Source: a virus
Lineage: Duplodnaviria; Caudoviricetes
Virus record (IMG/VR): IMGVR_UViG_3300028805_002025
Location: 128,001 to 192,000 of that record
Strand: one strand, 5' to 3'
DNA length: 64,000 nucleotides
Shown: positions 3,078 through 59,400 of the stretch, one piece after another
How positions within the stretch are numbered: position 1 is the stretch's first letter
Layout: the number at the start of each line of letters is the position of its first letter
Made by a program: the position numbers and the translations under genes
The notes under the pieces: generated by a model
What the model saw: only the letters and a program-made list of their open reading frames with translations
Told to the model about the DNA's origin: nothing
The model's database searches: none

Positions 3078-3578
3078 TTAATCTTCATTCTTTTTTACAA
3101 ACATTGCATTGTTTTTAGCTGCCCCATACCATAAAACTAATTTATAACCATTTTTTTCATATTCTTTAGCCTCTAGCCAATCAGTTCTACCAATAATGCT
3201 ATCGTAACCAATACAATTGAAAAGTTCTTCTAGAATTCTTATTTCAGCACTGCTTGATTGCGGATAGAATCTATTCTTTAATACATTACCATCATTGTCA
3301 ACGATGCAAGAGCTACAGAAATATCCAGTTGGAAAGCTTCTAAGTACACTATACTCATCAAACTTATCCTTGTTTACAATGAACTTATATTCTGTAAATG
3401 GGTTAAACTGCAAGTCAGAAAAATGGTTCTCAACCATATCTTTAGGCAGTTCATAGTCGCATTCATCTAAATAAACACGACTCTCTTCACACCCTACCCT
3501 GTTTGACCAAAACAGAGTCTCATATGTACCGCACAATTTAAATGATTTTTCATCTTTATTAAAAGCCCAAACTAACAT
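3078..3578 (-). CDS. hypothetical protein, AT-rich
   Basis: 166 aa ORF directly downstream of promoter 3606-3655. Confidence 0.7.
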   Translation of the reverse strand: MLVWAFNKDEKSFKLCGTYETLFWSNRVGCEESRVYLDECDYELPKDMVENHFSDLQFNPFTEYKFIVNKDKFDEYSVLRSFPTGYFCSSCIVDNDGNVLKNRFYPQSSSAEIRILEELFNCIGYDSIIGRTDWLEAKEYEKNGYKLVLWYGAAKNNAMFVKKNED

Positions 3579-3605
3579 AATTCAATTATTTTTTTAATTC
3601 TATGC

Positions 3606-3655
3606 CGCAAAGATAAATAAAAAAATCGAGACTACCAAATATAGTCCCGATTTTT
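3606..3655 (-). promoter_or_regulatory. fused terminator / sigma-A promoter
   Basis: ATCGGGACTA-TATTTGG-TAGTCTCGAT-T-tract-TATCTTTG, 20 nt spacer. Confidence 0.8.
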
Positions 3656-3663
3656 AACGTTTT

Positions 3664-5379
3664 TTAAATATTCTCCTCAACCTTGAAATAATATCCCTTA
3701 AGGCGATTTCTCTTTTGGTCAATCTTGCCACTAATCCATTTATACATAGATGTAACAGCAACATTATTTTGTCTAGCAGCCTCTCTGATAGACATATATG
3801 TGACTATAACATTATTATGTAAATCCAACTTTTTTACTAATACTCCAGCATGTGTCTCTGGAGACTTCCTTTTTTTCCTAGTGTTTGAGTTATTAACGTT
3901 TTCTAGTGGCGTTACTTCTCTAAGATTCTCTAATTTATTATTCAAGGGGTTAGAATCAATATGGTCAATTTGATTACCATCCTTTACTCTGCCATTAAAA
4001 CTTTCATATACCAACTTATGAGTGTAATGTGTTTTGTGATTTCCGTTACTATCTATAAGTCCCAATGTGTAATATTGTCCATATTTAATACATTGTCTCA
4101 TAAGATGCTTTCTTTTAACTCTCTTTACGTTTCTATTTTTTTCAATTAGCGTTCGTTCTTTAGCCATAACCCTTCCAAGGTTAGATACAGAGTACAAATT
4201 CTCATACCCAATTGCATCAACCCATTTTTCTCCTGGTAAGTCATCAAAATCAAAGATAGGTGTTACACCAATAGCACCACCTCTTGCAGATAATTTAGCA
4301 CGAGTTTTATGATTGTTAAGCATATTCTCACGTATTGAGCCACCTAATCTCAGATTAGATATTCTGTTGTTTCTAACATTATTATCTATATGGTCTATTG
4401 TATGAGTATATCCAGAAGGTAGTTTAATCTTATGAAAGCTTTCATATATCTTTCTGCTAGCAGAATAAAGTTTTCCACCTAAACACACTTGACCTAAACG
4501 GCTTGCAAAACTAACACGTATTAGTCTGTCTCTAGCTTTTTCTCCATTCTTATTTTTAACACTTATATTCTTAAATCTACCTTCACTACTGCATTGATAT
4601 TGCCCTTCAAACCCTAATACATCTACCCACGTTTCTTCATCAAACTCAATAGAATCATTTTTCCATATACCATTATTCTCTATAATATTTATATCACTAG
4701 TTGGGTTAGTGTATTTTTCTAATTCATCATTTATACATTTTGGACATTTATGAGAATTAAATCTTGGAAAATCTCTACTATTTGTTGTGAAATAATCGTT
4801 GTGTTTTTTGCAAAAAATTTTTATTAAATTACTTTTATCATGATACGAATTTTCATCAACCTCATATATATCACCATATTTTTCTGATACCAATTTACAG
4901 TAATCTTCATAAGACATTCTACGTTCTTGGGTGTTTTTTTCATTTCCACATTTAGGACAACCGTAGCCAGTATATAAATTACTTGGCTTTATGAACCAAG
5001 CACCGTGTTCAACACCATTACAATCCTTTTCATGACATATAACTTTCATGTGAGTTTTACTATTAATATATTCAGCTTCTGAAAAATCATATTTAATGTT
5101 AGGAAAACGTTTATATAAACGCTCTAAAAATTTTACTTTAGTGCCACCTCTTGTTAGTTTAGAATTATTGTTACCTTTTTCCCTTCCACATTTAGGACAA
5201 GCGCAAACAGCATTATTTTTCAAGACGTTATGCGGGACGACTGTTATATCACCATGTTTAGAACAAGTCATTATTAACGGTGAATATGCGCCAGTATAGA
5301 CAGTTTTCTCAAAAGAAACTTCACCTGGAAATCTTTCTTCAACTTCTTTTATAAATTCTTCTGTTGTTTTATTTTGCAT
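3664..5379 (-). CDS. free-standing HNH homing endonuclease: Zn-finger (CxxHG...CPxC) repeats, two NUMOD4-HNH modules, C-terminal NUMOD1-like HTH
   Basis: ETWVDVLGFEGQYQCSSEGR and EKWVDAIGYENLYSVSNLGRV; IDHIDNNVRNNRISNL and IDHIDSNPLNNKLENL; YMSIREAARQ. Confidence 0.8.
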   Translation of the reverse strand: MQNKTTEEFIKEVEERFPGEVSFEKTVYTGAYSPLIMTCSKHGDITVVPHNVLKNNAVCACPKCGREKGNNNSKLTRGGTKVKFLERLYKRFPNIKYDFSEAEYINSKTHMKVICHEKDCNGVEHGAWFIKPSNLYTGYGCPKCGNEKNTQERRMSYEDYCKLVSEKYGDIYEVDENSYHDKSNLIKIFCKKHNDYFTTNSRDFPRFNSHKCPKCINDELEKYTNPTSDINIIENNGIWKNDSIEFDEETWVDVLGFEGQYQCSSEGRFKNISVKNKNGEKARDRLIRVSFASRLGQVCLGGKLYSASRKIYESFHKIKLPSGYTHTIDHIDNNVRNNRISNLRLGGSIRENMLNNHKTRAKLSARGGAIGVTPIFDFDDLPGEKWVDAIGYENLYSVSNLGRVMAKERTLIEKNRNVKRVKRKHLMRQCIKYGQYYTLGLIDSNGNHKTHYTHKLVYESFNGRVKDGNQIDHIDSNPLNNKLENLREVTPLENVNNSNTRKKRKSPETHAGVLVKKLDLHNNVIVTYMSIREAARQNNVAVTSMYKWISGKIDQKRNRLKGYYFKVEENI

Positions 5380-6619: not shown

Positions 6620-7562
6620 AATTAATTATTTCCTTTAACAAATTATTCTTATTCTTATAAATATCTTCACCAGTTACGTTTTTAAACTTTGTGTAGTACA
6701 AAAGTTTAACACCATTATCATTACACTGTTTTTTCTTTATTATGTCTCTTTTAACAATTGTATTATATTCGTCTTCTCCTCCAAAACGTTCAATTGGTTT
6801 ATAATGCTGTTCACCTTGACATTCTATTGCAATATTGTAATCTGGCAAATAAAAATCCAATGATAAAGATTTATTTAGTTTTAACCAACTAAATTTCATT
6901 TGTCTTTTAAATTTCATATGATTCTTTTCCAAAAAAATAGCAACTTCTTTTTCTAATCTACTTTCATTACAAAATGGGCATCCTTGACCTTGAAGATGTT
7001 TCATAACACTTTGTTTGAATAAGCCGTGAATTGGACAAATAATAGTAATAAAACTTCTGTTATTTACATACTCTTCATTTATAAAAGGATATTGATATTT
7101 ATTTCCATGTTTTTCTTTAAACTTATCAATCAATTCATTAATTTCAAATCTATATTTATCAGATAAACGTTCATATCTGCATTTAGGACATCCGCATTTT
7201 TTATGAATATGGTTATATGGAGTTTGTTTGAATACCCCATGCTTCTTACAAACAATATTCATTTCTTTATCTATACCAGTATATTCAGATATAGAATAGT
7301 CATATTCATCACCATGAACCTCTTTACATTTTTCTATAATAAATTCTTTTGTATACTTTTTTGCATCAGATATATGTTTTCCCCTGCATTTACTGCAACC
7401 ATGATGTCTATATATGTGATGTCTTGGTGATATTTCAAAGTCTCCATGTATTTTGCAAGTAACTATAATATTTGTATCCCAATTGACAAACACTGTTTTT
7501 GAATAATCATATTCGTCGCCATATATTTCAATGGCTCTTTTTATAAAATTCTCTGTATCCAT
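6606..7562 (-). CDS. free-standing homing endonuclease: Zn-finger repeats plus PD-(D/E)xK (Vsr/Hef-like) nuclease
   Basis: three CxxHGxF...GCPxC repeats; SRLEKEV...LDFYLPDYNIAIECQGEQHY; AT-rich. Confidence 0.75.
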   Translation of the reverse strand: MDTENFIKRAIEIYGDEYDYSKTVFVNWDTNIIVTCKIHGDFEISPRHHIYRHHGCSKCRGKHISDAKKYTKEFIIEKCKEVHGDEYDYSISEYTGIDKEMNIVCKKHGVFKQTPYNHIHKKCGCPKCRYERLSDKYRFEINELIDKFKEKHGNKYQYPFINEEYVNNRSFITIICPIHGLFKQSVMKHLQGQGCPFCNESRLEKEVAIFLEKNHMKFKRQMKFSWLKLNKSLSLDFYLPDYNIAIECQGEQHYKPIERFGGEDEYNTIVKRDIIKKKQCNDNGVKLLYYTKFKNVTGEDIYKNKNNLLKEIINYGIN

Positions 7563-13000: not shown

Positions 13001-13822
13001 TTAATAATATAAAGACCTTAGATACTTTTTAGTTTTCTCTGCTACCGCACGTCCCCATGCGTTTTCATTCCTCTTATTTGCAAGATACAGACTGTAAGCA
13101 TACTTTTTAGGCTTACCAATCTTCTTGCACACTACAGTCCCATCCTCTGCCGTTTCCTTGGTTGAACCTGGAAAGTACTCTTCCACAGTGGTGAACTGGC
13201 TAAGATACTTGGAGTTGTCCTTTGGGTCAAAGTAACCCTTCTCCTTGATTTCCTCACGTGATGGTGAGCAAGCCTCACAAATCTTCTTGGTAATCTGTAA
13301 GAGCACGTCTGGTTTGTCGGTAATCATGCTTCTCAATACCTCATGCTCAAATGATAGCCTACCCTCATTTACCTTAAAGAAAGACTCCTTGTCGTAAACG
13401 AATGTCTGCCCGTCCTTTCCAGTCACCTTCACGCTCTTGTTGCTTAGGTCTACCTTTTCACGGATTGCCTTAGGATATGCATAGCCATCCCAGATTCTTG
13501 TGATGACATCACGCTTGTTGTCCGACACTACGAACTTGAAGGTGCAAGCCCAAGGCTCAATCAACTTGGAATCGAATTCGTCTCCTGGCACTGGGTCTGC
13601 TGGATTGTAGTAATACCATGTGTAAACTCTACTCTTTGATTTCAAGTCATCATCTATTAATTTGACGATTTCATCGACCTTTAACTTGAAATCCAAGGTG
13701 TTCATACTGTTCTCGATGAAGTTGAAGATTCTAAAGTTTCTCTTACAAATGATGTTGTCATTAACGTAGAGTGTGAACTCAAATCTTTCTTCTTTGTAAT
13801 CCTTTTCCTTAATTACTTCCAT
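13001..13822 (-). CDS. hypothetical protein upstream of helicase
   Basis: 273 aa ORF, genome-typical codon usage, own promoter. Confidence 0.8.
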   Translation of the reverse strand: MEVIKEKDYKEERFEFTLYVNDNIICKRNFRIFNFIENSMNTLDFKLKVDEIVKLIDDDLKSKSRVYTWYYYNPADPVPGDEFDSKLIEPWACTFKFVVSDNKRDVITRIWDGYAYPKAIREKVDLSNKSVKVTGKDGQTFVYDKESFFKVNEGRLSFEHEVLRSMITDKPDVLLQITKKICEACSPSREEIKEKGYFDPKDNSKYLSQFTTVEEYFPGSTKETAEDGTVVCKKIGKPKKYAYSLYLANKRNENAWGRAVAEKTKKYLRSLYY

Positions 13823-15520: not shown

Positions 15521-18031
15521 ATGGAAAGGAATATAAATGATAATTTCATTGAAGATATAATCAAGGAAATGTTTCGTGGTACTAACGAAGCATTATTGTC
15601 TGAAGTAGATACAGCCGCTATTACTATGGCTAAACAAGACCTCAGCAATAAATTTGAAAAATATCTCAATGACCCAGAAGCTAAGAAAAGAACACAGAAC
15701 CTGGCGAAGAACTATGGTGTAAACTTGGATAGGGGAGCTGAGCGTAAAGCATACAAGGACAGTATGCTTGGTGTCACTAACTCTGATGACCCAAATACTG
15801 TAGTTCCAAAGGGTTCATATGAGAAAGCAGTTGATACTATCGGTGGTGAATTAAAAGATGCTCTTAGAGACTACAACATATGGGTAGACCCTAAGACCCC
15901 TAAAGAAGTAAGGGCTGAACTTGGTAAGAAATGGGGTGGATTCGCTGGCTTCCAAAGATACAAGGATATTGCAGATAAAATGTCTCTTACCCCTGCTTAC
16001 GACCAACAACACGCTAAAGAAGCTGGCATTAATGTAGCACCATTTGGAACTAACTATCAGACAGTAGCCCCTAATGGTGAAATGTCTCTTACCCCTAATA
16101 AACCTGTATCAACTCCAGAGAAGGTTAACAAGTCTGGTGAGGTGGTTAGACCTTTTAAGCCTGCTGACGCTGTTACTGGTTATGATTTCGAGAATCTTGA
16201 CCTAACTAATGTACCAGACAAGGACATTATAAAGTACTTCAAGACTGGAACTAGAAAAGACCATCCATACGATGAAAAGACTGGTGAGAGGACAAACCCT
16301 AACAAGAACAGAACATATGCTGAACTTGCTAACATGGCAGATAAGGGTAACAAGAGGGCAATGTCTGACCTAAAGAACCTATATTTCAAGGCAATGTTTA
16401 ATAAATTGCTCAACAGTAAATTCGGTTATGACTTCAAGATGCCTACATCAATGTATACCTATGGTAACGCAAAACTTCCAAACGATACATTGGTGATTAA
16501 CTTTACTACAGCACACAGATGCCCAGCATGGAACGACTGTCTTGTTGGATATGCCTGCTATGCAAGAGGCTCAGAGCATAACTACGAAGGACTACATAAG
16601 AAGAACTCAAACCTTCACCTCATGTGGTCATCAGCTAAACATGACAGTAGCCTTCTTAATGCAATGTTCAACGTCATAAAGATGCACCTTATTAATCCTG
16701 GTAACATAGCTACTTCGCTTCTAAATGACCCAAATACACAAGGGAAATGGTTTGAAATACTTGGTGATAAGGAAGCCAATTTTACACCATTGAACAAGAA
16801 GACCTTAATTGGCATGACCCCTAAAACGCAGAACACGCTTGCAATGCCTAGTAAGAACGAGCCAGAAGAGGATGAAATGCCAACTGAAGGTAGAACGCTT
16901 CTAGGACAGGCACTACAGGAGGTTATGGGCGAAGCTGGTAGAAATACTGGTCTTCCTAAAGCACCTAAGAAACCTAAAGGTGCTAGAGACAATCTCGCTG
17001 GACTCATATTCACGCATAAGTTCCAGGATTTGTTCGATGAGAAAGATATTGAGGTTATCAAGAATAAACCAAACTCTTTCAGAGCTAAGTTCATAAGGCT
17101 CAATGAGGAAGGTGACTTTATCGGACAATGGCTTCTCGATGCATTTGATGAATTTGCTGGAGAATTGAAAGTACTTGGTATCAGTACTGCCGCATATACA
17201 TGTAGAAATCTTAATTTCACAAAGATACAGAATATAATAATCAACGCTTCCACCATGAATGTTGGAACAGGCGGTGAAGAAGACGGAAACGTTTCGAATG
17301 CTATAGCAAGAAGATTCTTTGCTGTAAGCTCAGAACTTTATAACCGCCTTGATGACACATATGTACCTACTGGAAGGAAGATTAACTACATCGTACCAGA
17401 CGGTAAAATACCTAAGGGTGAATATGATGGAAAGAAACCTCTTGTACCGTTGCACGAAACTGGAGACGGTCTGCATGTTAAGTACAACTTGAAAGCATTT
17501 ACCAACGGTGAGGACACCACTAATCCAGAAACGTTCAATGACAGATTCGACCCTAACGGCTCTACAATTAAACGTAGACTGTACTACAAGTGCCCTTGTG
17601 GAAGACATGGTGATGTTCTTGGCGACAACGGTAAACCTTTAAAGATGGACTGCTATTTGTGTAGAATGTGTTATGAACCTAAAGACCAAAAAGTCGGTGA
17701 AATATATGTGCTTGTTGAAGTTCATGGAGATAATATAGATTCTTTCGATATGAACAAAGCAAACCAGCAACGTGGAATAAGCAACAACATGGCTACATAC
17801 AGAGAGGCTAAAGCAATATTTGCCAACAGGCTATGCGAGGAGCATAAGCAGGCTGAGGAAAAAGGTCTTGAATTAGTTGGGCAGAACATAATAGAAAGTG
17901 TTAAAAACAGATTATCAAAAATAGGTAATAAAGCGTTGGATGAGATACCAATGGAGTCCAAGAAGTTCAACGACATGGTTAAGCTTATAGAGAAAGCAGA
18001 TAAAAACAGAGGTAATAAGATAATAGATTAA
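15521..18031 (+). CDS. large protein with gp88-like Cys-rich (radical-SAM-like) domain, possibly virion-packaged
   Basis: reads on + strand (ATGGAAAGG at 15521, TAA at 18029-18031); GNAKLP, CPAWNDCLVGYACYA, RLNEEGDF, AYT, CPC...CYLCRMC. Confidence 0.65.
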   Translation: MERNINDNFIEDIIKEMFRGTNEALLSEVDTAAITMAKQDLSNKFEKYLNDPEAKKRTQNLAKNYGVNLDRGAERKAYKDSMLGVTNSDDPNTVVPKGSYEKAVDTIGGELKDALRDYNIWVDPKTPKEVRAELGKKWGGFAGFQRYKDIADKMSLTPAYDQQHAKEAGINVAPFGTNYQTVAPNGEMSLTPNKPVSTPEKVNKSGEVVRPFKPADAVTGYDFENLDLTNVPDKDIIKYFKTGTRKDHPYDEKTGERTNPNKNRTYAELANMADKGNKRAMSDLKNLYFKAMFNKLLNSKFGYDFKMPTSMYTYGNAKLPNDTLVINFTTAHRCPAWNDCLVGYACYARGSEHNYEGLHKKNSNLHLMWSSAKHDSSLLNAMFNVIKMHLINPGNIATSLLNDPNTQGKWFEILGDKEANFTPLNKKTLIGMTPKTQNTLAMPSKNEPEEDEMPTEGRTLLGQALQEVMGEAGRNTGLPKAPKKPKGARDNLAGLIFTHKFQDLFDEKDIEVIKNKPNSFRAKFIRLNEEGDFIGQWLLDAFDEFAGELKVLGISTAAYTCRNLNFTKIQNIIINASTMNVGTGGEEDGNVSNAIARRFFAVSSELYNRLDDTYVPTGRKINYIVPDGKIPKGEYDGKKPLVPLHETGDGLHVKYNLKAFTNGEDTTNPETFNDRFDPNGSTIKRRLYYKCPCGRHGDVLGDNGKPLKMDCYLCRMCYEPKDQKVGEIYVLVEVHGDNIDSFDMNKANQQRGISNNMATYREAKAIFANRLCEEHKQAEEKGLELVGQNIIESVKNRLSKIGNKALDEIPMESKKFNDMVKLIEKADKNRGNKIID

Positions 18032-18032
18032 T

Positions 18033-18066
18033 AAAAAAGGGTAGGAAAAGAACTCTTCCTACCCTT
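18033..18066 (-). terminator. intrinsic terminator
   Basis: AAGGGTAGGAAGA-GTTC-TTTTCCTACCCTT then T-tract on minus strand. Confidence 0.8.
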
Positions 18067-18131
18067 AACGTTATCAACAATCAAACAACGATTAGATTTT
18101 AAGGTTAATCTAAAAAACCAACTCAAACAAC
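18033..18131 (-). ncRNA. candidate small RNA of about 100 nt
   Basis: lies between a consensus promoter and a minus-oriented terminator; no ATG; internal hairpin. Confidence 0.45.
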
Positions 18132-18133
18132 GA

Positions 18134-18183
18134 TGCAAAAGTATACAAAAAAAGTGAGATAACCAAAACTATCTCACTTTTTT
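18134..18183 (-). promoter_or_regulatory. fused terminator / sigma-A promoter
   Basis: GTGAGATAG-TTTTGG-TTATCTCAC-T7-GTA-TACTTTTG; close copy of 180-229. Confidence 0.8.
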
Positions 18184-18191
18184 AATATATT

Positions 18192-18707
18192 TTAACCAAT
18201 TACAGATTCTATCTCCTCAAACACACCATCGTTTCCAACGAATGTAAGAGTCTTCTTGTTAGGAATCTTACTGAAGTCGCATATTGCGTTGAACTTACTG
18301 AACTCTTCAGTACCATCCTCCAATAGCATGAATACTGGAACATTATTGTCTGAAGCAAACCACATCATGTAGAAATCCCTATCGCTGTTTGAAGCGATAT
18401 CACGAATTCTCTTAATGAGGTTGTCCTCATTCCTGTTACCCATAGATACCTTGGTACACTCACGCTTTCCGTTCTTCCTGGTGATTTTCCTTATCTCGCA
18501 AGGCTCAACGTAGAGTCTGTCATTGTGGATAAGGAGTGCAGAATACTTGGTCTTTCTCCTTCCCCTGCAATTTGCACGGTCTCTAAAGATTAAACTACTG
18601 TCACACAGACCTATATGCGTCTGGTGAGTTCTTCCTGTTTTACTCAAGTCAGAATTAGTCAGCTTCTTTACTGATATTCTCCTCTCTGGATTTAATTTTA
18701 CTCTCAT
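18192..18707 (-). CDS. hypothetical protein, possible EcoRII-N/B3-like DNA-binding fold
   Basis: KKLTNSDLSKTGRTHQTHIGL N-terminal motif; basic protein. Confidence 0.55.
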   Translation of the reverse strand: MRVKLNPERRISVKKLTNSDLSKTGRTHQTHIGLCDSSLIFRDRANCRGRRKTKYSALLIHNDRLYVEPCEIRKITRKNGKRECTKVSMGNRNEDNLIKRIRDIASNSDRDFYMMWFASDNNVPVFMLLEDGTEEFSKFNAICDFSKIPNKKTLTFVGNDGVFEEIESVIG

Positions 18708-19056
18708 AACTGTCTAAAATTTGTTTAGTTCTTACTTTGAATTTATCATAACACTTATCGCATAACTGGTATATCCAGCCAATAGTCTCTTTTGGCTCTG
18801 TTGGCTCTCCACATTCCTCGCATACATGTGAGGATTGCTCTGAAGCCTTCATAATATCCTCCAGAAGCCCGTTCTCATACCTCGATAGGTAGATATTAAG
18901 CCTACCGAATTTCTCCTTAACCTGGAGGATTTCTATGGGGTCTGGATTATCCTTGTTTATCTCCTCTACCTTATCGAGTATTGGTTGGTAAAGGTTCTTC
19001 CAACCCTTACCACACTCAATACCGAATAATTCATAAGGATGTTTCAATTTATTCAT
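18655..19056 (-). CDS. conserved phage protein with Zn-ribbon
   Basis: ECGKGW, QVKEKFGRLNIY, CEECG...LCDKC; ATG overlaps the recA stop region. Confidence 0.75.
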   Translation of the reverse strand: MNKLKHPYELFGIECGKGWKNLYQPILDKVEEINKDNPDPIEILQVKEKFGRLNIYLSRYENGLLEDIMKASEQSSHVCEECGEPTEPKETIGWIYQLCDKCYDKFKVRTKQILDSYESKIKSREENISKEAD

Positions 19057-20233
19057 CTGCTTCTTCCTCCGCAAATCTGATGTCTGCCTCACTGATATTG
19101 CTAGCACCATTTTCCTCAAGTTTTGTAAGTATATCCTTCACATATATCTTCTTGTATTCATCAAGCTTCTCTGGACTTAGCAGACCATTGTGTACACATG
19201 ACATTTCACCCTCGTATGTAATATTCCAAGGAGTTGGCAACTGGTTCTTGGTAGTTCTAATCTTGGTAGTGATACCGTAGTTGTAGGTCTGTCCCTTCGC
19301 AGTAGCCGTAAGCTTCTTAGTAGCAGCTTTACCAATACCTCCAAGGTGTATTATCAATCTAGCACCATAGAACATGGTCTTACCACCCTTTAACTCAATT
19401 GAAGGTACACCACCCATTGAGTTCATGGAGTCATTCCAAATCTTATTCACACAGAAGAATGTGTTTGTATAAGGTTCACTAATCTTCTTTGATGAAGGAA
19501 TTCTATTGTTGATAATGTCCTGGAATGCCTGTGAAATAGCACCAGCATCAAACATGTTATTTCCTGTCTTACTCTCAAGTGACTTGAATGACTGTATAGA
19601 ACCGATTGAGTCCCAAATGAAGCATATTGGCTGCTGAATATCGCCTCTGTCCTGCGCATCGAGGATGTCAGTTATTGAATAAGCTATGTCCTCAAGAACA
19701 GCCTGCTTACGCTTTGTCTTAGACTCCTTACCTGTTGAATAGTCCCTGTTTCCATAGACCTCAGCAAGAATCTTATTATCGTAGTAAATAAACGGTCCAT
19801 CGTAGTCGATGATTCTATTCTCCATGTGGGTAGTAATCTCCCCTGTCTCTGGGTCAACATCCTCAACCTCAACGTCACCATAGATAGGCGTAGCCTTCAT
19901 TCCACAGTCGATTGCATATTTGAAGTCAAAGTTATTCTCAGTCTCATATATAACTGGAAGAATACCGTTATTGATACATGATGCAATAAGGCAGTTCTTT
20001 ATGGTTGACTTACCAGTGTTAGACCATCCAGTAACAATTGTTAGGTATCCCTTTGGTATTCCTGGAAGCTTAATAGCATCAGAGAATGCCTCTGGAAGTG
20101 GTATAAAATCCATTGGTTTATCCGCTGCCGACATAACCAGGTCAGCATCTGACTTCATCTTCAGGCCAAGCTTCTCCTTTATACTGTGAATGTCTGGTCT
20201 CTTAAATTCCTTTTTCTTAACTGGTTGTTTCAT
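19049..20233 (-). CDS. recA: RecA/UvsX-like recombinase
   Basis: GIPKGYLTIVTGWSNTGKS Walker A, FIWDSIG Walker B, KGGKTMFY, TKNQL. Confidence 0.85.
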   Translation of the reverse strand: MKQPVKKKEFKRPDIHSIKEKLGLKMKSDADLVMSAADKPMDFIPLPEAFSDAIKLPGIPKGYLTIVTGWSNTGKSTIKNCLIASCINNGILPVIYETENNFDFKYAIDCGMKATPIYGDVEVEDVDPETGEITTHMENRIIDYDGPFIYYDNKILAEVYGNRDYSTGKESKTKRKQAVLEDIAYSITDILDAQDRGDIQQPICFIWDSIGSIQSFKSLESKTGNNMFDAGAISQAFQDIINNRIPSSKKISEPYTNTFFCVNKIWNDSMNSMGGVPSIELKGGKTMFYGARLIIHLGGIGKAATKKLTATAKGQTYNYGITTKIRTTKNQLPTPWNITYEGEMSCVHNGLLSPEKLDEYKKIYVKDILTKLEENGASNISEADIRFAEEEADE

Positions 20234-38060: not shown

Positions 38061-38092
38061 TTTGGATATTCCAATCTTTTTCCTTAACTTTG
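38061..38092 (+). promoter_or_regulatory. sigma-A promoter
   Basis: TTTG-N20-TAACTTTG. Confidence 0.8.
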
Positions 38093-56435: not shown

Positions 56436-59400
56436 ATGAAACAAATTACATCAGAGGTCGTTAATACTTTCCTTAACGGACATGACCCAATGGAGCACAT
56501 CATTACCATAGAATGTGACTACCAGGACGATAGGGTAAGTATTGTTTTTGTGAATGACAAAGGAGAAAAAAGGGTCAGATTGGACGATTTTAAGCCGTTT
56601 TTGTGGTGCAAAAACAGCGCAGCAATCAGATTATTTGGTGGTGACAGGAAAGAACTTATCTCTCAGATGAGAAGATATGGCATATCCTGTAAAAGACTTA
56701 CAACTTCGGATGATGGTAACGTCAGTGACCGTCTTGAGAATGGCTACAAGTACATGTTCTATGCGAACAGGAGAATGAGTTACCAGAAGTTCCTCAGCTT
56801 TTTCAAGGATGCTGGAGTGCCAGTGCATGAGTCGAAGAAAAACGGGCAAACTGGTGAAACCAACAGGGAATATATGGTGGTAACTCCAGTTGAACAGTAC
56901 ATGATTCAGACTGGTAAGAGACTGTTTAAGGGTTATGAGAATTATAATGACTTGAACAGATTTATCTTCGACCTTGAAACACAGGGACTTAACCCAAGAA
57001 TACATAGAATTGAACAGATTGGTATCCATACCAACAGAGGCTTTGATAAAATCATTTCGGTTACTGGTAATACCAAAGAGGAACTTGATGCCAGTGAGCT
57101 TAATGCAATTGACATGTTTCTTTACATATTGTCAATTACAAAGCCAGATACAGTTGTAGGTCACAACTCAGAGAACTTTGACTGGGACTTTCTTATTGTA
57201 AGATGTGAAGAGCTTGGTGCGGACTTTAAGGAAATGAGTTTAAAGTACTTCAAGCACCCTATCTACAAGAAGCAGAAAGAGTCGGTTCTTAAACTTGGTG
57301 GAGAGGTAGAGTACTATCGTCCAACAGTCATGTGGGGTCACATCATTCTTGATTCACTTCATGCTTCAAGAAGAGCACAGGCTATCGACTCTAACATGAA
57401 GAAATCAAACTTGAAATATGTTACCAAATACCTTGACTTGAAGAAGCCAAACCGTGTGTATGTTCCAGGTGACAAGATTACAAAAACTTGGGCTGTAACT
57501 GAAGAGAAATACGGCTTCTGTGACGAGGATGGAGACTGGTATTTAGTAACTGAAAAACATAAGCTTCTTCCAGGATATAAGATGGTTTCTGGTAGGTATA
57601 TAGTAGAAAGATACCTCCTAGATGACCTATGGGAAACCGATAAAGTGGAAGATAAACTTAATGAGTCTAACTTCCTGGTAGGTAAGATGTTGCCTACAAC
57701 ATTCTCTAGGGCTTGTACAATGGGTACAGCAGGTATATGGAAGCTAATTATGCTTGCGTGGGGTTATGAAAACAACCTAGCCATTCCAGCAGCAGCACCT
57801 AACAAGAGGTTCACTGGTGGTTTGTCAAGGCTTCTTAAGACTGGATATGTTGACCGTATTGTGAAGCTTGACTACAATTCCTTGTATCCATCAATTATCC
57901 TTACATGGCATGTATCTACGCCTATTGATACAATGAATGTGATGCTTTCATTCCTTGAATACATCCTAACCCAGCGCGAAAAGTATAAGAACTTGAAGGG
58001 AGAGGCTGGAGACAAGGCTAAGGAACTGGAGAAACAGTTGAAAGCATATGAGGGACAGGATGAAATGTTTAAGAAGAAGCTGGCAGAAGAGATACAGTAC
58101 TGGAAGATTGAGAAATCTGGTAACGATAAGAAACAGTTGCCTTTGAAGATTCTCGCCAACTCATTCTTCGGCTCTTATGGAGCACCTAACATATTCCCAT
58201 ATGGAGACGTTATCGCTGCTGAGAAGACCACCTGTATTGGTCGTATGTCACTGAGACTTATGATTTACCACTTCACAGGCATTGGATATACACCTATCGT
58301 GGGTGATACCGACGGTTTCAACTTCCAGATGCCAAGAGAGGAAGATTTCAGATATACAGCAGACCATCCTTATATTGGCAAGGGTCTTGGTCGTAACACT
58401 GTCAAGGGTAAGGAATATACTAGAGTTGAGGCTGATGTGGCTGAGTTTGAGGACTTGTTCATGGCACAGGCTTACAACGGTGGTGTAAACAAGATGGGTC
58501 TTGGTATCGATGAATACTGTGATGCTACCATCAATTTCGCCAGAAAGAACTATGCAGACCTTATGCCAAACGGTAAGACAAAGAAGGTGGGTAACACCAT
58601 TAAATCAAGGAAGATGTCTGGCTATCTGGAGAAATTCATTGATGACGGTGTAGACCTGTTGCTTAGAAACAATGGCTACAAGTTCTTGTCTAACTACTAC
58701 GACTATATAGAGAAGATTTACAACTATCAGATTCCTATCAAGGATATCGCTTCAAAGGGAAATATCAAGAAGACAATTAAGGATTATATAGCAGATTGTA
58801 ACACCCTTACAAAGTCTGGTAGTAAGAAATCAAGGCAGGCTTGGTATGAACTTGTAATCAAAGAAGACGTGAAGGTTAACGTGAGTGATACCATTTATTA
58901 CATCAATACTGGTACTAAGAAGGGTCATTCAGATGTTAAGCGTGTAACCCATTATTTCACATTTGATAATAATGGCGAAAAGGTAGAGATTACAAAGGAG
59001 GTCGAGAAATTATACAAGGAGCAGAAGGGTAAGACAAGACTTGAACTTGCTAAAGAAGCTTATCCGAAGGCTTACGAGGAAGATGAAATAATCCTCAACT
59101 GTAAGCTAGTTCCTAACGACATTGTGGATAGTGAAGAGGATGTGCTTTGCAGTGACTACGAGGGTCTTGAATACAATGTAGAGAAATATATTGACCAATT
59201 CAATAAGCGTATTACTCCATTGCTTGTATGCTTCCACCCAGATATTAGGAATAAGATTCTCATTACAGACCCTAAGGATAGAAAATTCTTCACGGAACAG
59301 GAATCTAAGCTTGTCAATGGCTATCCTAACAAGCCAGAAGACCAGGATACCTTCGAAGCTCTGATGACCCCAGAGAGGAAGGAAATCGAATTCTGGACAA

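Follow-up and report, generated by a model that had tools for sequence, protein, structure and literature searches.

The stretch of DNA analysed here (64,000 nt, hereafter the window) covers bases 128001-192000 of a 241,681-bp IMG/VR virus record with 39% G+C and a completeness estimate of 75%. This record encodes T4-like replication genes together with 44 predicted tRNA and tmRNA genes; we describe its source as an uncultured giant, T4-like jumbo phage of rumen Bacteroidota, with relatives of up to 360-390 kb that come from ruminant gut assemblies. Within a block of replication and recombination genes—encoding a DnaB-like helicase, a 5'-3' exonuclease, a UvsX-like recombinase, and thymidine kinase—two convergent genes are separated by a 160-nt gap, and it is this gap that the candidate unit occupies. 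To one side lies an 836-aa plus-strand gene with GP88-family relatives (15521..18031; PF17338 in distant homologues), whose stop codon abuts a terminator that we call T2. To the other side lies a 171-aa gene of no known family (18192..18707, minus strand), the last gene of a minus-strand operon, which is ended by a terminator, T1. Features of the unit itself are given below on the minus strand.

Relatives were fetched with both neighbouring genes as anchors, and the resulting loci are referred to by numbers with the prefix L. The 171-aa protein belongs to a well-conserved family, with invariant QTHIGL, KITRKNG, SMGNRN, and YMMWFASD motifs in relatives L007, L011, L013, L014, and L017-L023; it had no match in Pfam or PHROG, and weaker relatives (25-32% identity) occur on other metagenome contigs, including one from human gut. 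Downstream of the 836-aa gene, the neighbourhood differs in nearly every relative (L008:5514-7235 and other loci), with the UvsX-like gene following directly, a 573-aa DUF723/endonuclease-like gene, a 180-aa plus-strand ORF, or small ORFs among the variants, and this marks the region next to the conserved replication genes as a hyperplastic one. A blastn search in distant mode with 4.8 kb against 50,697 phage records gave no match, while exact-pattern scans of IMG/VR returned the same two contigs every time; the unit is known only from a narrow clade, of at least 95% identity.

The promoter of the unit (18167..18136) consists of TTTG at 18167..18164, a 20-nt spacer, and TACTTTTG at 18143..18136, followed by the CA at 18135/18134 that is the predicted transcription start. 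It fits the sigma-A pattern of Bacteroidota, in which TTTG is found at -33 and TAnnTTTG at -7 (PMC7366714). Genome-wide, it is one of 44 near-identical copies of the form TTTG-N20-TAnnTTTGCA (consensus TTTGG-N-TATATATCTTTGCAC), of which those in the window lie at 213, 3639, 5434, 13917, 15485, 18167, 21997, 24499, and 49831 on the minus strand and at 38061, 46610, 47482, and 56342 on the plus strand. Scored with a weight matrix built from this genome's own copies, the promoter reaches 37.5 bits, within a family range of 22-57 bits, and members at 28-37 bits drive ORFs of 78-449 aa. An ATG-started ORF lies within 70 nt of 40 of the 43 other family promoters, often behind a very short leader (in several units the ATG is 4-9 nt past the -7 box), and most of the remainder lead to tRNA genes or a known small RNA: tRNA genes lie downstream of family promoters at 13585, 21171, and 58573, and an RNA with an ACAGCAA motif at 3905. 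The promoter at 18167 is the sole member of the family with an unclassified non-coding product. Among relatives it varies at a single one of its 32 columns. That it would fire early in infection we infer solely from its host-type form.

From this promoter, a non-coding transcript of ~100-105 nt is predicted (18135..18031), made up of a 69-nt body (18135..18067) and T2. The body has 29% GC and is G/U-rich (71% A+T, against 61% for the genome), with 13 G and 7 C on its non-template strand, and neither ATG nor GTG occurs anywhere in 18135..18021. It contains an exact 12-nt direct repeat, ATCGTTGTTTGA, whose copies are 42 nt apart and invariant in five strains: copy 1 (18134..18123) forms the predicted 5' end and is unpaired in the consensus fold, and copy 2 (18092..18081) lies partly inside a hairpin. 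The repeat has no third occurrence in the 241.7-kb genome, where its cores are likewise not enriched anywhere, and a repeat of at least 12 nt arises in 0.76% of Markov-1 random sequences of like make-up (p 0.008), so that it is moderately beyond chance. Between the copies, the consensus fold has a weak 7-bp hairpin, HP1 (TTAGATT/AATCTAA; 18113..18107 with 18098..18092), with its sole substitution (A/T) in the loop, followed by HP2 (18090..18069), a predicted 7-bp hairpin (CGUUGUU/GAUAACG, with two G-U pairs) that shows no variation among strains. The fold of the whole RNA scores z -4.6, a signal that comes from T2; the body alone is no more structured than its shuffles (z -0.9), and no covariation was seen in the consensus fold across the strains. 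An initial annotation of this DNA had already drawn attention to the ~100 nt lacking an ATG, to the direct repeat at 18123-18134 and 18081-18092, and to the TTAGATT/AATCTAA hairpin between its copies; all three observations hold, the stretch being devoid of GTG too, the repeat exact at both places, and the hairpin part of the consensus fold. Searches with blastn-short and nhmmer across the genome and all fetched loci returned no copy of the body beyond the five strains.

T1 (18183..18148; 16 pairs and a T-run) is an intrinsic terminator of the upstream operon, and a pattern scan called it on both strands, with 16 pairs on the minus and 14 on the plus. Its hairpin, GTGAGATA/TATCTCAC, is flanked by A6 and T6 and carries the promoter's -33 TTTG in its loop. 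This fused design recurs in 9 of the 44 promoters: a G+C-containing hairpin of 11-16 pairs has the -33 TTTG as part of its loop, and its 3' arm and T-run double as the promoter spacer. The stems of these nine copies are unlike in sequence yet still pair. Two copies elsewhere in the genome are near enough to the T1-promoter module to be found by similarity search, and the module copy at window position 213 drives an ORF 26 nt downstream.

T2 comprises a hairpin (18066..18037; 13 pairs, one of them G-U, and a GTTC loop) and a U-run of the form T6-A-TT that extends to 18031. On the plus strand, the G-U pair becomes a mismatch, 11 pairs remain, and AACGTTATC comes next, which explains why the scan called T2 on the minus strand only. 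In relatives, the terminator that the convergent genes have in common is its homologue; a plus-strand T-run is present in its L013 homologue and was lost from T2 in the window's clade. The initial annotation had proposed the same architecture around the transcribed stretch, namely a consensus minus-strand promoter at 18136-18167, a separate terminator for the upstream genes, and a strong hairpin whose U-tract and G-U pair would work on the minus strand only. The promoter is borne out by its position and its match to the 44-member family, and the two terminators by T1 and by the strand bias of T2.

Among the relatives, the slot between the convergent genes is seen in three states. L014 and L020, which have ~47% identity in the 171-aa protein, carry a single bidirectional terminator, GGTTAGGAT..ATCCTAACC, between the two genes. 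L013, L016, and L023 (77%), as well as L017 (71%), have the T1-promoter module followed by two small ORFs, one of 68-75 aa that starts MHYNYGKT and a Cys-rich one of at least 77 aa that starts MCPDCGRAKMLFE; in L013, the two ORFs are followed by a terminator, GGGGTAGGA..TCCTACC, that is homologous to T2. The third state, found in the window, L012, L011, L015, and L038 (95-98% identity), has the same module and the same terminator with 69 nt between them; contigs of these phages derive from IMG 3300012016 and 3300037400, Ga0247611, and run SRR14574041. This filler shows no similarity to the outgroup ORFs, no remnants of which were found in the body, and a search of the whole genome record gave no homologue of either ORF. 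Because two ORFs hold the same slot in the outgroups, parsimony suggests a recycled cassette slot in which the protein cargo was replaced.

Across the five strains, the unit occurs in three gene contexts. An additional 302-aa gene separates the 171-aa gene from T1 in L011 and L015, and in L011 the GP88-family gene downstream of the unit is another one, of 469 aa; homology between contexts ends exactly at the unit's two edges. A gene of ~302-306 aa with the motif NGQHRLYA is found directly after the 171-aa gene at L011:3521-4429, L015:~675-1580, L013:~3520-4453, and L018 (~615 onward), and is precisely absent from the window and L012, so that strains differ by the presence or absence of one whole gene between the stop codon and T1. 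By eye its product looked ParB-like; it has no Pfam match, and we do not make that call. The contig L038 (Logan SRR14574041, 2717 nt) covers exactly the interval between the promoter region ahead of the 836-aa gene and the interior of T1. Its two ends both lie in repeated promoter modules and are probably assembly breaks at repeats; if its run were RNA, the contig would outline an mRNA passing T2 to T1.

Sequence variation in the body is strikingly low, with 3 variable columns of 69 in the five strains (two substitutions and one 1-nt length change in a T-run). Neighbouring third codon positions vary at 20-32% overall: 34 of 172 in the 171-aa gene (Fisher p 0.0012 vs body), 74 of 377 in the last 1.1 kb of the 836-aa gene, and 264 of 835 in the 836-aa gene with L038 included (Fisher p 6e-8 vs body). 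Between L038 and L012, the third-position difference in the 836-aa gene is 28.6%, against 0 of 68 in the body. The free loop positions of T1 and T2 offer a comparison from within the unit, as 5 of ~8 are variable compared with 3 of 69 in the body (p 1.4e-4, with sites chosen post hoc); the T2 loop varies in four of the five strains, and the T2 G-U pair is A-U in two. Since loops inside the unit vary, enough time has elapsed for free sites to change. These patterns suggest that the filler is constrained at the nucleotide level across its whole body, although recent exchange could imitate constraint, given that the genomes are mosaic (62% of 70-nt windows in the neighbourhood have at most two differences between the two closest strains) and that cassettes of this kind probably move by recombination at flanking modules. 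With the T1 and T2 loops differing between strains, a recent transfer needs both crossovers inside hairpin stems. The initial annotation had asked whether relatives carry an ORF at this place and whether what is left here is unconserved; relatives do carry ORFs, but the residual sequence is conserved (3 of 69 columns variable), so its small-RNA proposal is not refuted.

The module and its cargo resemble the PeSL (promoter-early stem-loop) elements of T4-type coliphages and vibriophages, in which a stem-loop terminator and a strong early promoter bracket variable cargo and bring about its shuffling (PMC2839356, PMC4122927). As in the PeSLs of RB49, phi1, PST, and nt-1, a composite of stem-loop and strong host-type promoter recurs many times in intergenic DNA, on either side of small, variable cargo in hyperplastic stretches; between close relatives this cargo is gained, lost, or exchanged, and the breakpoints fall at the modules. 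What defines a PeSL at the sequence level—a promoter for the host sigma factor, a stem-loop terminator joined to it, and variable cargo with module breakpoints—is all present here. The promoter, however, is of the Bacteroidota TTTG/TAnnTTTG type rather than sigma-70, and the stems differ from the GGGG...CCCC of RB49 and phi1, making the module an analogue and not a homologue. Moreover, whereas the parts of a PeSL are adjacent, here they overlap, the terminator's loop containing the -33 box and its 3' arm and T-run making up the spacer, and the cargo appears to be 69 nt of conserved non-coding DNA and not an ORFan.

A search of 17000-19200 against Rfam (E up to 10) gave only noise, the best match being L20_leader over T1 at 28.2 bits against a threshold of 58.7; the covariance check suggested by the initial annotation accordingly yields no family at gathering threshold in Rfam 15. 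A CRISPR-repeat mimic or mini-array, considered because it had suggested comparing the repeat with host CRISPR repeats, is unsupported, as the repeat is 12 nt and not of CRISPR length, CRISPR-DR models gave no match on the unit, and the seven matches to the twin-repeat pattern in 185,579 genomes, which lie in Bacillus, Ekhidna, Pseudanabaena, an archaeon, and a Clostridiales MAG, are all unrelated tandem repeats. A type III antitoxin RNA, which it had also raised, likewise finds no support: ToxI-like RNAs have tandem repeats of ~34-36 nt directly upstream of an endoribonuclease toxin gene, whereas the unit has two 12-nt repeats 42 nt apart and no gene next on the strand. Complementarity of the body to the phage genome is equally unremarkable, with a longest Watson-Crick match of 12 nt (12-13 in shuffles), duplex energies against 234 start regions that 85% of shuffled bodies equal or better, and one-mismatch sites able to pair with the repeat via G-U (window positions 18381, in the 171-aa gene, and 26266) that are within chance.

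The geometry of the convergent pair raises the question of antisense action. The predicted RNA ends at the stop codon of the 836-aa gene and so does not reach into its coding sequence. As there is no T-run behind T2 on the plus strand, where T1 is the first terminator to be called, the mRNA of the 836-aa gene probably has a 3' UTR that covers the unit in antisense, and by geometry we infer that the RNA would be fully complementary to this 3' UTR if the mRNA reads through T2 to T1. A purely cis-antisense role needs no sequence conservation, and for this reason we rank it below a role in trans.

When a promoter and the stretch transcribed from it are both conserved and lead to a strong terminator, the simplest reading is an RNA gene. 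We suggest that the unit may be a self-contained, clade-restricted early small RNA gene with a predicted RNA of ~100 nt, born in a recycled cassette slot, and we hold this proposal to be about evenly poised between right and wrong. As the filler is conserved far beyond neighbouring synonymous sites, the early phage small RNA of the initial annotation is alive and, in our view, ahead of the other readings, although no Rfam family, covariation, or phage target was found for it. Under the small-RNA reading, transcription by the host RNA polymerase would set in as infection begins, and the RNA released at T2 would be single-stranded and G/U-rich at its 5' end, where the first AUCGUUGUUUGA motif lies; in order, the molecule would present a free AUCGUUGUUUGA copy, HP1, HP2 half-burying the second copy, and T2. 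It might then act in trans on a molecule of the host, by pairing through its twin motif with a C/A-rich site in an RNA or by titrating an RNA-binding protein. Nucleotide conservation across the whole body, combined with no excess of complementarity to the phage, makes host-side action in trans the most likely mode. A more specific version—that the phage swapped protein cargo for a strictly conserved ~100-nt trans-acting small RNA with twin 12-nt motifs—we advance tentatively, as possible rather than probable.

Several other readings of the same DNA have to be weighed against a small RNA gene. The slot might be a vestigial cassette that lost its cargo, in which case the promoter would fire into leftover DNA as far as T2 and the RNA would be a by-product with no role; T1 and T2 would have been kept for ending the upstream operon, for ending the convergent gene, and for shielding that gene from antisense transcription, and the filler would look conserved through recent strain-to-strain recombination at the flanking modules. 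Such a history would suit the two ORFs held in the slot by L013, L016, L023, and L017, with no homologue in this record, and the hyperplastic surroundings, where gene-sized indels and swaps lie to either side; the mosaic divergence and the lack of any signal of structure, target, or family point the same way, and mobility of this kind is known from the PeSL cassettes of T4-type phages (PMC2839356, PMC4122927). Loops of T1 and T2 just 5-15 nt from the body nevertheless differ among the same strains, so that transfer breakpoints must sit in the stems, and the -7 box and body, for which no other function is known, carry 3-4 changes over 101 nt, against the ~20-30 that third positions would predict. 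The unit is, moreover, retained in three gene contexts. The emptied cassette that the initial annotation offered as an alternative is upheld as an origin by the outgroup ORFs in the same slot, but not as a present state, since the filler is not decaying and is kept in five strains; we consider a vestigial cassette unlikely, though well short of negligible. Quite improbable, in our judgement, is an element acting at the DNA level, whether through 12-bp repeats 42 bp apart (~four helical turns) as protein sites, or as an origin of the T4 oriF/oriG type, whose promoter would fire into an A+T-rich unwinding element and whose transcript would stay in place as an R-loop that primes replication. Minimal T4 origins are ~100 bp long and consist of a promoter and an A+T-rich unwinding element (PMC3016281), and the unit resembles them in having, over ~100 bp of a T4-like replication gene region, a promoter and an A+T-rich downstream stretch (71% A+T in the body against 61% in the genome, 13 G and 7 C on the non-template strand); nucleotide-level conservation would, in turn, suit a protein-binding site. 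Yet oriF and oriG use MotA-dependent middle promoters, and their unwinding element is not sequence-specific and has no terminator after it (PMC3016281), so that an origin does not predict 66 invariant columns of 69, and the strong terminator right behind the element here has no place in the T4 design. Cumulative GC skew shows no turn at the unit and no other origin signal was found there, the repeat motif and its cores are nowhere else above expectation, and outgroups have coding cargo at the same place.

The least credible of these readings, to which we attach very little weight, is a gene for a tiny protein, namely a frame of 30-39 codons with a TTG start that would encode a basic peptide with the core FRLT-L/F-KSNRCLIVDNVKGRK-x-SFPTLFY. 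This frame is open in all five strains, L015 having an extra TTT in frame and the window staying open because an extra T is offset by another in-frame TTG, and very short leaders are common in the promoter family. There is, however, no ATG or GTG, and an ORF of at least 30 codons occurs in 14% of random sequences of like make-up (p 0.14). The frame also spans the terminator hairpin, with a stop (18030..18028) that lies past the predicted transcript end and is lost in L011; the few changes are mostly non-synonymous (L/F, V/F, S/I/N), and third positions are as invariant as the rest, the opposite of what a coding sequence shows. Pfam and PHROG gave no match at E up to 1.

To our knowledge, small RNAs of virulent phages are few and come almost entirely from phages of Proteobacteria, and we know of none from Bacteroidota phages; Bacteroidota hosts lack Hfq and ProQ. 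Should the version with a trans-acting RNA be true, the unit would give Bacteroidota phages their first functional small RNA, and a regulatory RNA gene would have arisen inside a mobile terminator-promoter cassette. What would be new is a candidate of a known class, phage small RNAs that run from promoter to terminator, placed inside PeSL-like cassettes. The unit is a compact and well-bounded candidate with a clear history, from protein cargo to non-coding cargo in a shuffling cassette, and it indicates that the terminator-promoter cassettes of this phage group can hold non-coding cargo. Because the claim draws solely on conservation, in one narrow uncultured clade, we give it modest weight.

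Two kinds of known small RNA are close to the proposed one. In Bacteroides, "high-confidence intergenic sRNAs" were defined by their own sigma-A promoter, a Rho-independent terminator, low GC, and an unstructured seed region (PMC7366714). Like these sRNAs, GibS among them, the unit combines low GC with a predicted promoter of its own, ends in a Rho-independent terminator, and has a 5' region that is largely free of structure and could act as a long seed; it differs in being phage-borne, in having no match to GibS or Rfam, and in being conserved in one narrow clade only. The OOP RNA of phage lambda, which brings about cleavage by RNase III, overlaps the cII coding region over 52 bases (PMC5869508); it too is a short promoter-to-terminator unit that faces a convergent protein gene and can pair with the end of that gene's transcript. 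Here, by contrast, the RNA would stop at the neighbour's stop codon and overlap only with the presumed 3' UTR, and the strong sequence conservation exceeds what an OOP-like role needs.

Two further observations concern transcription signals elsewhere in this genome. The T4 late-promoter octamer, TATAAATA, occurs 18 times in the window against 5.9 expected, a count that no shuffle reached; examples lie at 6656, 7580, 23435, 38023, 46574, 53397, 55190, and 56334, and no exact copy lies upstream of the 836-aa gene. Outside the window, on the minus strand (G000:C1:58604-58530), another promoter of the family is followed immediately by a hairpin with a U-run, CACCGTGA...TCACGGTG-T7, and a tRNA-Leu array starts at 58448, ~125 nt past this promoter. 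In front of the tRNA genes, this hairpin might serve as an attenuator or represent a very short RNA.
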